From sequence record SRR31156797_5308: a stretch of DNA of 64,000 nucleotides; one strand, given 5' to 3'. A program made the position numbers and the translations under genes. Position 1 is the first letter of the stretch; every line of letters starts with the position of its first letter. This document shows, in pieces, positions 1 to 4,519 of the stretch. Below the pieces are notes generated by a model. That model had not been told where the DNA came from and did not search any database. It saw only the letters and a list, made by a program, of their open reading frames with translations.

Positions 1-33
1 GTTCACTCCTAATTGATCGATTTTATCAAACAA
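1..33 (-). CDS. tkt: Transketolase, 5' fragment (gene runs off the window start)
   Basis: TTG at 33 reads (M)FDKIDQLGVN, the Firmicute Tkt N-terminus. AGGAGG RBS at ~42-47. TTGAAA(105-110)-17bp-TATAAT(82-87) promoter. Fits the conserved lexA/ynzC/tkt order. Confidence 0.8.
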   Translation of the reverse strand, partial: MFDKIDQLGVN

Positions 34-133
34 TGGTAGTTCCTCCTAATTTAGGTTTTTTTTACCTTTATTACATCTTTTATTATACGTGATTCAGATG
101 CTTATTTCAATAGCAATGAAAAGGAATTCACAA

Positions 134-373
134 TTATCTGCCGTGGAGACCTTTTTTCTTTTGAATCTCTTTTAATTTCTCTGGTGTCACATCAGCACCT
201 TCAGGATCAACGATCTTCATTCCTTCAATATGGTGACGCATTCCTCCACGAAAGGCGGTTAAATACTCGTCACGTAGAACTTTTTGTTCGTTCGTTTCTG
301 CCTCAGTCAAACCCTCTGTTTTTTTCTTGTTGGCAAGTTCATTGATTCGAGCTAATTTTTCTTGAGATAGCAT
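134..373 (-). CDS. ynzC: DUF896 / YnzC family protein
   Basis: [18 protein letters not shown]...LRDEYL...DVTPEKL motif; divergent from lexA. Confidence 0.9.
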
Positions 374-439
374 ATTCGTTCCTCCTTTTCCCTCTTGATT
401 TTACTACAAACTAGCGAATAAAAACAATAGTGTAAAAAG

Positions 440-453
440 CGAACATTTGTTTG
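440..453. promoter_or_regulatory. LexA (SOS/Cheo) box overlapping the lexA -35
   Basis: CGAACATTTGTTTG vs consensus CGAAC-N4-GTTCG; overlaps TTGAAT(451-456)-17bp-TACACT(474-479, TG-extended). Confidence 0.85.
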
Positions 454-500
454 AATATTCGATATACCTATGGTACACTAATGTTATCAAATGAAAGAAG

Positions 501-1130
501 GTGTCAGTTTTGGCAAAACGAACAGAAAATCGACAAATCGAAATTCTTAAGTTCATTCATACCCGTGTCACTGAAAAAGGCTATCCGCCGACTGTTCGCG
601 AAATTGGCGAAGCCGTTCAGTTATCTTCTACCTCAACTGTTCATGGCCATTTGTCCCGACTTGAAAAAAAGGGGTTGATCTTGCGAGATCCTACAAAACC
701 CAGAGCCATTGAATTAACTTCTTCCGGTCTTGAAAAAATCGATGTTCAGCCAGCATCCATTCCGATGCTTGGTGTCGTAACTGCGGGAGAACCGATTTTA
801 GCAGTGGAAGATGCATCCGATTTCTTTCCAATTCCGCCAGATTTAGCAAATAGTACCGGTAGTTTGTTTATGTTGACGATCCGAGGAGAAAGTATGATCA
901 ATGCTGGCATCCTTGACGGCGATCAAGTGATCGTTCGCAAACAACAAAGTGCGCAAAATGGTGATATTGTGATCGCTATGACAGATGAAGATGAAGCTAC
1001 TTGCAAACGATTCTATAAAGAAAAGAATTACATTCGTTTACAACCGGAAAATGATTACTTAGAACCAATCATTTTGCCTGACGTAACGATTTTAGGATTG
1101 GTTGTTGGGTTGTATCGACATCTGCTTTGA
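501..1130 (+). CDS. lexA: LexA SOS repressor
   Basis: [17 protein letters not shown] cleavage site, GESM catalytic Ser, ATCKRF catalytic Lys. Confidence 0.98.
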
Positions 1131-1150
1131 TGCTCAACGAGCTGACTAGG

Positions 1151-1179
1151 AAATCTTCGTTTTTACGAAGATTTTTTTT
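1151..1179 (+). terminator. Intrinsic terminator of lexA
   Basis: AAATCTTCGT-tttt-ACGAAGATTT followed by a T run. Confidence 0.8.
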
Positions 1180-1187
1180 CTTTCCTC

Positions 1188-1237
1188 TTTACAAACCGAA
1201 CAAACATTCGTATAATAAGTATACAAACATAAGTTCG
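1188..1237 (+). promoter_or_regulatory. sigmaA promoter with two LexA boxes
   Basis: TTTACA(1188-1193)-17bp-TATAAT(1211-1216); CGAACAAACATTCG at 1197-1210 and CAAACATAAGTTCG at 1224-1237. Confidence 0.85.
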
Positions 1238-1259
1238 TATTATTTAAGGAGTGAATGAG

Positions 1260-1472
1260 ATGAAAGCAGTTCGTCGATTTGGTTTTATGTTATGGGTTTT
1301 ATTGATGGGTATTGTTATTGGCTATTTTGGCGTTCTAAGTGCTGTTCTGATTTTTTGTCCTCTAATGATGCTTTGGTTCATGCTATGGGATGAAAAGAAA
1401 TTCCGCCAAGCAGAGCGCAAACGTAACCGCCATTATTATCACGATCATGATTTTTATCGTTACGAACCATGA
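1260..1472 (+). CDS. Small (70 aa) membrane protein, predicted SOS-inducible
   Basis: AAGGAG RBS then ATG at 1260; ~36-aa hydrophobic stretch followed by a basic/aromatic tail; own promoter and terminator. Confidence 0.8.
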   Translation: MKAVRRFGFMLWVLLMGIVIGYFGVLSAVLIFCPLMMLWFMLWDEKKFRQAERKRNRHYYHDHDFYRYEP

Positions 1473-1498
1473 TCCTTCCCCTACATACGCCATAAGGC

Positions 1499-1547
1499 AG
1501 AAGAAACAAAAAAGGACTCCTGCGAGTCCTTTTTTGTTTCTTCTTTT
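1499..1547. terminator. Bidirectional terminator between the small ORF and apt
   Basis: AGAAGAAACAAAAAAGGACTC-ctgc-GAGTCCTTTTTTGTTTCTTCT. Confidence 0.85.
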
Positions 1548-2060
1548 TTAGTATTCCATTAACGTCTTGATTTCAACACCTTGGATTTTATCTCTTCCAT
1601 GTAAATCCATTAGTTCGATCAAAAAGGCACAGCCCACAACGATACCGCCTAGTTTTTCTACGAGTTCAATCGTTGCTTTGATCGTTCCGCCAGTTGCTAG
1701 TAGATCGTCACAAATCAAGACACGTTGTCCTGGTTTGATAGCATCGGCATGCAACGTCAAAACATCCACGCCATACTCTTTTTCATACTCTGCTTCAATG
1801 GTTTCCCGTGGCAATTTGCCTTTTTTACGTACTGGGGCAAAGCCGACACCTAACTGGTACGCAACTGGGCAACCAACGATAAATCCGCGGGCTTCTGGTC
1901 CTACCACCATATCGATGCCTTTTTCTTGTGCATACTCAACGATCTGCTGTGTCGCATAACGATACGCTTCTCCATCAGCCATTAGCGGCGAGATGTCCCG
2001 AAAAATAATTCCCTCTTGGGGATAATCCGGAATACTAGCAATATACTCTTTTAAATCCAT
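1548..2060 (-). CDS. apt: Adenine phosphoribosyltransferase
   Basis: [35 protein letters not shown] motif; start moved to MDLKEY after GGAGG. Confidence 0.97.
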
Positions 2061-2071
2061 TTTTTTTCCTC

Positions 2072-4375
2072 CTAGACTGTCAACCACTGACGTAGGGTTG
2101 ATAAATCACTCATTAATAAAAATTCTTCTGTTTTGATCATTTTTTGTCGTTGCTGATACAAATGACTCTCTGTCAGCGGACGAGAAACAGGATCAGCCGT
2201 TTTATTCAAAACACCATCTTGTATTGTAACAAATTCCAGCTCAGAAAACACCTGAATCATAAAAATAAGTAATTTTTCTGGAATTTTTAGATAGTTAGCG
2301 ACCATCTTTAATTTGTAGCGAATATCCAAACGAGGCTGCTGCTTGATCAATTGAAAAAGCCGACCATATTGCTCTCTGGTTCCTACCCCGTCTAAATAGG
2401 CATCTTCCGTCGAGTAAAACACAAACGCAATTCTTGAAGCATGAAGCGCTTGAACGACCTCTTTGATCACAGCAATATCAGCAGGACAATCTAAAAACGC
2501 GATCTCTTGGAACGGACCAGCACAAAATGTATCTTTCACAGCAGCCACCGAGTCGAATAAGATCGTTTGTCCACAAAATCCTTGCAGCTCTCGAGGCAGT
2601 TTCTTATTGAAAACGACCCCTAATGTTTCATTTCCCAGAGAGACACCTTGCCGACTCCTTTTCGAACGATAATCAAACAACTGCAGCCCTTCCACTGCAA
2701 AGTCATCCAACATCAGCTGCGGTTTTTTGTTGCCATTCCATTCATTGATTGAAAGCTGACCGACGATCGATAGTCGATCATTTTCAAACTCTACTGAGTC
2801 TTTTCCAAAACCAAAACCAATCACATCTAGCTGTAGATTGGACTCATCTGTCATCACTAACTTCAAGTGCTGGTTTTCGGTACCAATCTGGCGGGCATTT
2901 TGAGTCGATAAATTGGAAAACAGAAATTTCGGTAACGGATTGTCCGTTCCGAAAGGCGCTAAAACGTTTAAAGACTCAATAAAGTTGATCGATACTTCCG
3001 CCAATGGCAGTTCCTCATCGATCGCTAAGGGGATTCCCTGACTAAGATCAATTCCATTTTCTTCCACATAGCGATTCATCTGAGCTTGTAGCATGTCCAA
3101 ATGATCAATCGGGATACTTAAGCCAACCGCCGCATGATGACCACCAAAACTGGTAAACATGTCTTTCATCGTAGCCAACATTTCAAATAGATTCAACGCA
3201 GCGACACTTCTACCTGACCCTTTTGCTAACCCATTTTCTTTTTTGGTCAAAACGATCACGGGCTGTCCGGTACTTTGCATGATACGTCCAGCTACGATTC
3301 CTAAAACCCCTTCGTGCCAGTTATCACCTACGACCAGATGAACATGATTGGCAGGGTCGATTTTTTCTTGCGCTTCTTTCATGATTTCTTCAACGAAAGT
3401 TTTTCGCTGCTGATTGATCGTATCTAATGTCTTGGCTAAGGTTACTGCTTCTTCTTCATCAAATGTGGTTAACAAACGAACAGCAGGATTAGGATCTTCC
3501 AACCGACCAATTGCATTGAGGCGGGGGCCAACAGCAAAACCAATATCGGTTTCGTTGACTGTTCGTTTTTTCAATCCACTGACCGTCAACAACTCATTCA
3601 AACCAAGCCGATCAGTTTGTTGGATCATTTTCAGGCCATTGCTGACTAGTAGTCGATTCTCATCTGTCAAAGAAACCATATCAGCAATCGTCCCAATTGC
3701 AACAAGGTCCAGCAGTTCGACGGGCACTTCTTCTAATAGGGCACAAGCCACTTTAAATGCGACACCGACTCCCGCTAAATCACCAAACGGATAGTTTCCT
3801 TCAGGGTGACGGGGATGAACGATGGCAAAGGCTTCTGGGAGTTCTGCAGGAAGTTCATGGTGATCCGTCACGATCACATCGACCCCTTGCCCTTGAGCAT
3901 AAGCAATTGCCTCATGTCCAGATACCCCATTATCAACGGTGATGATCAATTGCGTCCCTGCCGCAATTTTATCTTGATAGACAGTTATGTTGGGACCATA
4001 CCCATCTGAAAAGCGATTGGGCAGATAATATTCAGCTTCAGCCCCTAGCAACTCCAGTGTTTCTTTTAATACGGTGGTGCTCGTAATCCCATCTGCGTCA
4101 TAGTCGCCATAAATCAAGATCCGCTCACCATTTAAAATGGCTTCATGGATCCGTTCCACGGCCTTATCCATATCATGAAAGAGAAACGGATCATGAAGGT
4201 ATTGCAGATCCGTTGATAAAAAAGCGTCTAGCGCTTCTGCTGTTCGAATATTTCTTTGCCATAGCAACGCGCCGATGCGCTCAGGAATCTTTCTTGCTTG
4301 GATCAATTCTTTAAATACAGGGGTAGCTTCGCTATCTTGCGGTCGCACCCAATGAAAATTTGCACGTTTCACCAA
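2072..4375 (-). CDS. recJ: ssDNA-specific exonuclease RecJ
   Basis: [30 protein letters not shown] motifs; recJ-apt synteny. Confidence 0.97.
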
Positions 4376-4519
4376 ATCACTCCTAACTAGGTTATTATAG
4401 CAAAGTTTATGTAAAAAGGAAAAACAACGAAAGAAACAATTTATTTTTTCATGTCACAAAAAAGAGCTTGCAGCGAACGATGCGCCGGCAAACTCTTTTC
4501 TTAATTGCTCTCATGTATT

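Follow-up and report, generated by a model that had tools for sequence, protein, structure and literature searches.

The 64,000-nucleotide stretch of sequence record SRR31156797_5308 analysed here (the window) carries, downstream of lexA and on the same strand, the gene of a 70-amino-acid membrane protein (hereafter the small gene and the small protein; Table 1), whose promoter holds two LexA boxes. Our analysis shows that the small protein founds an unnamed family present in almost all enterococci, and that the two boxes accompany the small gene even where lexA is located elsewhere. Judging from the sequence, LexA very probably binds this promoter and DNA damage very probably induces the gene. 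By analogy with other bacteria, the product is the best candidate in enterococci for a non-homologous division inhibitor of the SOS response, a proposal in which our confidence and our doubt are about equal. The regulatory reading, control by LexA, is well supported by sequence evidence, and the functional reading is plausible.

The paired LexA boxes are retained with the small gene

In the window, the first LexA box fills the spacer of a sigma-A type promoter. The second starts 8 nt past the −10 hexamer and corresponds to about +1 to +14 of the transcript with the inferred start. The conservation of this arrangement was scored in 130 primary loci of Enterococcaceae, over the 140 nt before each start. 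Two boxes with at most one mismatch each, their starts 27–29 bp apart, are present in 116 loci, and the spacing is exactly 27 bp in 109 of these 116. Ten further loci keep the pair with one box at two mismatches (GGAAC... or AGAAC...), and in three loci of genus g3 both boxes are within one mismatch but lie further upstream, behind an inserted repeat. Both boxes are thus found in 119 of the 130 loci at up to one mismatch and in 129 at up to two. In the single exception the open reading frame (ORF) lies 40 nt after lexA without a promoter of its own, and it would be co-read with lexA.

The most telling loci are those in which the two genes are apart. In 98 of the 130 loci the small gene immediately follows lexA in the same orientation, and the two boxes are kept in all 32 loci where it does not (26/26 in genus g13, 2/2 in g2, 3/3 in g7 and one in g12). 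In two genomes with an unlinked small gene, lexA is about 111 kb and about 196 kb distant. That both operators persist once the two genes are apart is, in our view, the best evidence that the boxes serve the small gene itself. The neighbour on the other side, apt, is found downstream in most genera, including most of the loci with lexA elsewhere. Where lexA is linked, a hairpin followed by a T-run separates it from the promoter in 83 of 87 loci, which indicates that the small gene is normally its own transcription unit. The promoter design, CTTTACAA...TATAAT, is kept across the family and also in the sister family f8, whose primary copies stand behind lexA at 29 of 35 loci.

It is the clustering and conservation of the boxes, not their number, that exceed chance. 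The window contains four sites with at most one mismatch in 64 kb, an unremarkable count compared with 1.9 ± 1.3 in shuffled sequences (15 of 100 shuffles reach four), and promoter-like sites are not enriched either (four found, 5.5 expected). Three of the four boxes are clustered between 440 and 1237, in the 800 bp that surround lexA. A congeneric genome, complete at 3.1 Mb, has 48 LexA-box sites at up to one mismatch, and the only pair among them less than 50 bp apart is the one in the promoter of the small gene; the next-closest pair, 757 bp apart, is formed by this promoter and the box of lexA itself. Eight of the first 15 of these 48 sites inspected are inside long ORFs. A 14-mer identical to box 1 is found 47 nt before recA in the same genome (PF00154, E = 2e-141) and another site precedes the gene of a Metallophos (SbcD-like) nuclease. 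These two positions suggest, from sequence, that the motif is a working SOS operator of the genus.

Several loci deviate in other respects. In genus g3, an element of about 115 nt is inserted between promoter and ORF, in one copy at L091 and in two copies at L118 and L121. All copies terminate in an identical ribosome-site region, ...AATACGAATTAGGA, and the boxes come to lie 181–320 nt before the start. The element may stem from a duplication within the leader or represent a small mobile repeat. A second chromosomal copy of 71 aa, with a LexA box pair to itself, exists in five species of genus g4 (L059–L062, L065); this copy is located away from lexA, between a membrane-protein gene and an ABC-transporter-like operon, and groups with the primary g4 copies in the family tree. 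In the sister family, two lexA-linked primary copies are broken by a stop codon, while promoter and boxes remain: L245 (genome G303) has a TAG after residue 34 and the copy of G289 has one TAA. The small gene therefore appears to be lost occasionally.

A conserved and unnamed membrane protein family

The small protein has no match above cut-off in Pfam or NCBIfam (best E-values 0.037 and 0.02), and when 37 distant members were compared with Pfam, no family was matched by more than four of them, all weakly. A word-based search of 5.8 billion proteins returned only four near-identical sequences. The gene is nevertheless real and under selection, as the median ratio of nonsynonymous to synonymous substitution rates (dN/dS) is 0.05–0.18 in six genera over the first 55 codons. 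By six-frame genome search it is present in eight of eight congeneric species with 88–100% identity, and a profile search found it in 131 of 134 Enterococcaceae genomes, representing 16 of 17 genera. The three genomes without a match are 99%, 76% and 100% complete. One of the 131 matches, that of genome G122 (E = 0.002), was discounted, being inside a 394-aa frame.

A search of 1.84 billion representatives with a profile made from an alignment of 42 diverse members (A2) yielded 78 clusters at E ≤ 0.001, each of 43–93 aa; there is no fused form among these 78 clusters and none of them carries a name. Members from named species, among them E. faecium, E. mundtii, E. cecorum and E. quebecensis, are all annotated as hypothetical protein. 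The nearest clusters of the ESM Atlas are likewise without a name (best score 0.89). In a sample of 401 Lactobacillales genomes, the protein family is present in 63 of 63 genomes of the bacterial family of the window (f1) and in 35 of 36 of the sister family f8, whose members are called Vagococcus where a name exists. It was found in none of the 302 genomes of the seven other Lactobacillales families of this sample. An 81-aa member from E. cecorum shares a 90%-identity cluster with AhpF proteins of 510 aa, which looks like an artefact of the protein collection.

The sequence of the small protein suggests a membrane hairpin. Residues 7–43, a stretch of 37 aa, are without a charged residue; they are preceded by an N-terminus of charge +3 (K2, R5, R6) and followed by a tail (D44–P70) with eight K/R, six D/E, three H and four Y. 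The AlphaFold2 model, computed with the 42-sequence alignment, has two helices separated by a break at Y22-F23-G24 (mean predicted local distance difference test score 72.7, predicted template modelling score 0.40). Applied to the basic residues at both ends, the positive-inside rule predicts that both termini are cytoplasmic and that the outer turn is very tight. The protein is accordingly likely, as far as the model can tell, to form a hairpin of two helices whose N- and C-terminus are inside the cell.

Conservation is concentrated in this part of the protein. W39, W43 and D44 are invariant in the 42 diverse members and G17 is invariant even among distant members; G21, G24, P34 and L35 are also conserved, as is the juxtamembrane motif D-E-K-K-[FY], in which D44 precedes acidic, basic, basic and aromatic residues. 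Of these positions, G17, G21 and G24 are assigned to helix 1 and P34, W39 and W43 to helix 2. Past about residue 55, both length and sequence vary freely. This contrast suggests that the working part consists of the hairpin and the predicted cytoplasmic juxtamembrane segment.

The initial annotation of this DNA had described an enterococcal membrane protein next to lexA, with two LexA boxes and a likely two-helix hairpin, and had pointed to conservation of ORF and boxes across Enterococcus as a way to check it. The prediction of a membrane protein with a two-helix hairpin is supported by the AlphaFold2 model, the protein is real and conserved, as its low dN/dS shows, and conservation extends to the ORF (131 of 134 genomes, the discounted match included) and to the pair of boxes (129 of 130 loci). 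Its scope was drawn too narrowly: the gene is family-wide in Enterococcaceae and occurs in the sister family, it has relatives in phages, and its boxes persist without linkage to lexA.

Relatives in prophages and satellites

Compared with the PHROGs profiles, which have no curated cut-off, the small protein matches phrog_1270 (E = 3.6e-7, 31 bits) with residues 5–58 aligned to positions 8–62 of the 67 profile positions. Two prophage paralogs without LexA boxes match the same profile at E = 9.8e-8 and 7.6e-6. The function of phrog_1270 is given as unknown by PHROGs. No LexA box was found at any of the five extra copies detected in the family search or of the 21 extra copies detected in the order search.

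We scanned the neighbours of these box-less paralogs at four loci with E ≤ 0.001, the hallmark matches being far stronger, and at 20 loci with E ≤ 1e-12 (65 of 126 listed ORFs); L248, nearly identical to L247 and carrying stop codons, was left out, as was L252, a lexA-linked primary copy. All 24 adjoin genes for an integrase, a cI-like repressor, an anti-repressor, a replisome organiser, a primase or a single-strand-annealing protein. The paralogs share their strand with the replication genes, and integrase and repressor are encoded on the other one. Strand and neighbours together place them in early lytic operons of prophages or satellites. Neither these paralogs nor the chromosomal copy, which stands between lexA and apt, are in lysis cassettes beside an endolysin gene.

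A family tree of 74 members was calculated from 62 columns by a quick search only, and 38 of its 71 forks are unresolved. Phage and chromosomal labels cluster on this tree, with four changes versus 19 in shuffles; the phage copies are on long branches and the chromosomal copies on short branches grouped by genus. The tree gives no direction of transfer.

A tblastn search of an annotated phage collection with the small protein retrieved OR846632.1 and OR847331.1, both rejected as phage relatives: they are bacterial DNA, on UNVERIFIED_ORG contigs with apt. They are labelled Enterococcus or Listeria phage, OR847331.1 also contains lexA and ynzC, and they look like host DNA in phage preparations. 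Queries of the same collection with two prophage paralogs returned only these two records, and IMG/VR, queried with three single prophage paralogs, gave no confirmed relative.

The small family and YneA occur in different bacterial families

The known division inhibitor YneA, of Bacillus subtilis and Listeria, is represented by the NCBIfam model NF010723 (PRK14125), which detected B. subtilis as a positive control. This model is above cut-off in none of 61 Enterococcaceae genomes; its weak matches there are LysM repeats in frames of 190–1000 aa. In the 401-genome sample it matches every one of the 38 genomes of family f7 at E ≤ 1e-12, and none of the 63 f1 and 36 f8 genomes, the two families that carry the small gene. 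The model cut-off is passed by 37 of the 401 genomes, and all of the 35 matches listed belong to f7. Among the bacterial families, the small family and YneA are therefore mutually exclusive.

The LexA DNA-binding domain is present in f1, f7 and f8. It is also found in four families with neither YneA nor the small family, namely in 26/26 genomes of f2, 58/62 of f4, 49/51 of f5 and 59/61 of f9, so that further SOS effectors should exist. It was detected in none of the 62 genomes of the Streptococcus-like family.

A candidate division inhibitor of the SOS response

Small membrane proteins that stall division are known from several settings. SosA of Staphylococcus aureus has about 70–80 aa and is encoded next to lexA, divergently and with shared intergenic operators, and SidA and DidA of Caulobacter crescentus are single-pass proteins. 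Recovery requires that YneA and SosA be removed. Among phages, lambda Kil, Qin DicB and SPO1 gp56 are small early proteins that stall host division, gp56 being a membrane protein of a Firmicute phage. According to a published account, small integral membrane proteins that block late division are a widespread SOS device, exemplified by YneA, SosA, ChiZ, SidA and DidA, and several of these inhibitors have been modelled on FtsW (PMC13396833). The title of one of its references describes DidA as SOS-independent (PMC13396833).

Several observations lead us to favour a division inhibitor as the product of the small gene. The gene is located beside lexA, as are the inhibitor genes of Bacillus, Listeria and Staphylococcus, and the small family replaces YneA phyletically. 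The early operons of phages, in which the box-less relatives reside, are a known home of division inhibitors such as Kil, DicB and gp56. Finally, small integral membrane blockers of late division are common across phyla (PMC13396833). Full-text literature searches found no publication naming an SOS-induced division inhibitor or a LexA-controlled membrane protein in Enterococcus, although supplementary transcriptome tables could list the gene.

We propose the following sequence of events. LexA would silence transcription of the ORF at 1260–1472, with one dimer in the promoter spacer and another over the transcription start. Two bound dimers would exclude RNA polymerase more strictly than the lone box at lexA or recA does, which fits a product that is harmful when untimely, and the promoter would fire only upon strong or lasting damage. 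DNA damage would then release a small inner-membrane protein, which would insert as a helical hairpin with its basic N-terminus and its basic and aromatic tail in the cytoplasm. The hairpin could bind a membrane component of the late divisome or the septal wall synthase, for example the shape, elongation, division and sporulation (SEDS) glycosyltransferase FtsW or its partners, and septation would be paused until repair is complete. This role would equal that of YneA in Bacillus and Listeria and of SosA in Staphylococcus, and the box-less relatives in early lytic operons of phages and satellites would presumably serve the same purpose after induction.

The individual parts of this proposal differ in strength. 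That the target is a component of the late divisome or septal synthase, such as FtsW or its partners, is a suggestion that we consider unlikely to be correct. Somewhat more credible, while still doubtful, is the broader idea that the hairpin family common to temperate phages and to the enterococcal and vagococcal core genome may be the missing effector of an SOS division checkpoint, acting, unlike YneA, SosA, ChiZ or SidA, on the septal synthase from inside the membrane and its cytoplasmic side; phages would employ this device to keep the induced host undivided, one lineage having captured the family from the other. As a separate observation, the nearest genome has four SEDS (FtsW/RodA) genes on contigs C131, C99 and C39 (L267–L270), two of them adjacent, and none reaches the NCBIfam FtsW/RodA cut-off. 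For the best FtsW-like protein among them, 1:1 orthologs were identified in 40 of the 41 genomes of the family compared.

The resemblance to YneA lies in genetics rather than in structure. Both are small membrane proteins encoded at the lexA locus beside ynzC, YneA being LexA-repressed and tightly so, and their distributions are complementary within Lactobacillales. However, YneA is a single-pass protein that needs an extracellular LysM domain for activity (PMC13396833), whereas the small protein has no LysM domain and two predicted helices. In addition, yneA is divergent from lexA and the small gene follows it. SosA is similar in that it is an SOS-induced membrane protein without LysM that blocks a late step of division; it differs by its single pass and by an extended extracellular helix critical for toxicity (PMC13396833), both ends of the small protein being predicted to be cytoplasmic, a comparison made by description only. 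The small gene is also downstream of lexA, on the same strand and with its own promoter behind a terminator. SidA and DidA are very small damage-induced inner-membrane proteins that act in the membrane on FtsW/FtsN and not on FtsZ (PMC13396833); they belong to another phylum and have no homology to the small protein. The parallel between Kil, DicB or gp56 and the phrog_1270 paralogs is one of gene position and timing only. The phage members of phrog_1270 in turn differ from the chromosomal branch, which has LexA boxes, a fixed site in the core genome and a longer tail rich in Tyr and His.

Several results weigh against a LexA-controlled division inhibitor. The 14-mer consensus is not over-represented in the congeneric genome, with its 48 sites compared with 127 for a reversed control pattern. 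In the sister family, two boxes at up to one mismatch are present in only 13 of the 35 primary loci, with one in 15 and none in seven; the f8 promoter sequences show GAAC-N4-GTTC-like cores with altered flanks, noted without a count. The 18 RNA-labelled runs with the locus are, in the four examined, assembled contigs of 0.5–14 kb that are uninformative on transcription and on its starts and ends. The small gene follows lexA on the same strand instead of being divergent from it. The characterised SOS membrane inhibitors named in PMC13396833 are single-pass, and YneA and SosA act via their extracellular C-terminal part; here the hairpin and a motif predicted to be cytoplasmic are conserved. A small pore-forming protein would account equally well for its length, its pair of helices and its charged C-terminal end. 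Lastly, the complementary pattern with YneA rests on three non-independent families, and f2, f4, f5 and f9 have LexA but neither protein.

Enterococci are leading hospital pathogens, and fluoroquinolones and other DNA-damaging drugs trigger their SOS response. The small gene is a concrete and testable candidate in this context, as it is present in essentially every species of the family and has the most heavily guarded LexA operator arrangement in the congeneric genome. If it encodes a division brake, the small protein would represent a structurally different class, a hairpin with cytoplasmic ends, in a group so far composed of single-pass proteins. It would also link a host checkpoint to phrog_1270, an unstudied family of phage early genes.

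Alternative functions

The small protein may instead be an SOS-induced membrane toxin, although we consider this improbable. Its hairpin would oligomerise into a pore or depolarise the membrane, like TisB/DinQ or a class II holin-like protein. Damaged cells would enter dormancy or persistence, or lyse at high dose, and the harm done by leaky expression would explain the doubled operator. Consistent with this, the protein is small, with two hydrophobic helices, a highly charged C-terminal tail and basic residues at both ends, and a GxxxG-like spacing is conserved (G17-x3-G21-x2-G24). The trait of class II holins, two helices with N-terminus and C-terminus inside and a charged C-terminal tail, is matched by the prediction for the small protein, and the operator arrangement is the tightest in the congeneric genome. 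LexA-repressed small hydrophobic membrane toxins are known in Escherichia coli, TisB and DinQ being type I toxins of this sort (PMC8309996). Yet these toxins have 27–29 aa, one helix and an antisense or small RNA antitoxin, and the family studied here is longer than type I toxins, at 55–93 aa. No such RNA is evident at the small gene: there is no minus-strand promoter-like site in 1119–2400, and the 76-nt gap to apt is occupied by a terminator. Rfam gave only sub-threshold matches, both on the terminator and taken as chance (Thr_leader, 31.7 bits with a gathering threshold of 55; Atu_C8, 23.7 with 50), so that there is no sign of an antitoxin RNA, a novel one being possible. Furthermore, the phage relatives are in early operons, away from endolysin genes. 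It is unusual for a chromosomal toxin locus to be passed on vertically, almost without loss and under strong purifying selection, as the small gene is, though this is compatible with a toxin. If the product does act in this way, the small gene becomes a candidate for SOS-dependent tolerance in enterococci.

A still less probable explanation is that the small protein regulates another membrane protein during the SOS response, such as a transporter, a protease, a kinase or an enzyme of peripheral wall synthesis, in the manner of MgtS or MgtR and with no direct role in septation. Small membrane proteins commonly work by binding larger ones (PMC12648545). The location of the conserved residues within the membrane and next to it agrees with such a function, as does the free variation of the tail rich in Tyr, His and acidic residues, which is expected if the hairpin is the working part. 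However, no conserved partner gene accompanies the family, as its neighbours are lexA, apt and recJ and the second g4 copy stands among unrelated genes, and the presence of relatives in early phage operons is left unexplained.

Least probable among the functions considered, and very unlikely in our view, is a domesticated phage early gene that acts in phage–host conflict, by blocking DNA entry or the development of another phage (superinfection exclusion), or by modulating prophage induction during SOS, when resident prophages awaken: the homology to phrog_1270, the location of all 24 scanned box-less paralogs in regulatory and replication regions of prophages or satellites and the viral label of the second-nearest ESM Atlas cluster (score 0.86, a lead only) speak for it, whereas exclusion genes are usually in the lysogeny module and the paralogs are on the lytic strand with replication genes, the chromosomal copy occupies a fixed core-genome site (lexA/apt) in 130 species on short branches compared with the long ones of the phage copies (on a poorly resolved tree), and there are no defence-system neighbours in positions 1–4400 of the window.

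Organization of the locus in the window

The features of the locus are given in Table 1. A base-by-base reading agreed with the initial annotation on all coordinates given there. Its description of a monocistronic, doubly LexA-boxed gene insulated from lexA by a terminator holds as well, the insulation recurring in the linked loci mentioned above, and so does its remark that the divergent side has ynzC and no yneA, in keeping with the DUF896 gene found there and with the absence of NF010723 matches above cut-off from the Enterococcaceae genomes searched.

Table 1. Positions of genes and regulatory elements around the small gene in the window.
Feature	Position	Strand	Remarks
ynzC-like DUF896 gene	134..373	-	Divergent from lexA; PF05979 E=1.7e-31, NF002711 E=2.3e-37
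LexA box in the promoter region of lexA, CGAACATTTGTTTG	440..453	+	1 mismatch to CGAACN4GTTCG
lexA	501..1130	+	LexA_DNA_bind E=8.7e-24, Peptidase_S24 E=2.7e-33
Intrinsic terminator of lexA	1148..1177	+	13-pair stem and T-run
Sigma-A type promoter, TTTACA-17-TATAAT	1188..1216	+	11/12 match; -35 at 1188-1193, -10 at 1211-1216
LexA (Cheo) box 1, CGAACAAACATTCG	1197..1210	+	Fills the -35/-10 spacer; 1 mismatch to CGAACN4GTTCG
LexA (Cheo) box 2, CAAACATAAGTTCG	1224..1237	+	1 mismatch to CGAACN4GTTCG
Ribosome-binding site AAGGAG	1246..1251	+	8 nt ahead of ATG 1260; read from sequence
Gene of the 70-aa membrane protein	1260..1472	+	ORF; two predicted helices, 3-21 and 25-64
Hairpin terminator between small gene and apt	1499..1544	both	20-pair stem, A-run before, T-run after
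apt (adenine phosphoribosyltransferase-like)	1548..2060	-	Pribosyltran E=9.9e-19; convergent neighbour

The hairpin at 1499–1544 stands between the convergent small gene and apt and is usable from either side. Within the first 4.4 kb of the window, recJ is next beyond apt and is likewise convergent with the small gene.

The four runs examined differ from the window at a few positions. At 1231, in the unspecified spacer of box 2, one of them (X3) has C for A. Within lexA, G replaces A at position 830 in all four and A replaces G at position 1129 in three of the four. These differences look like strain differences.

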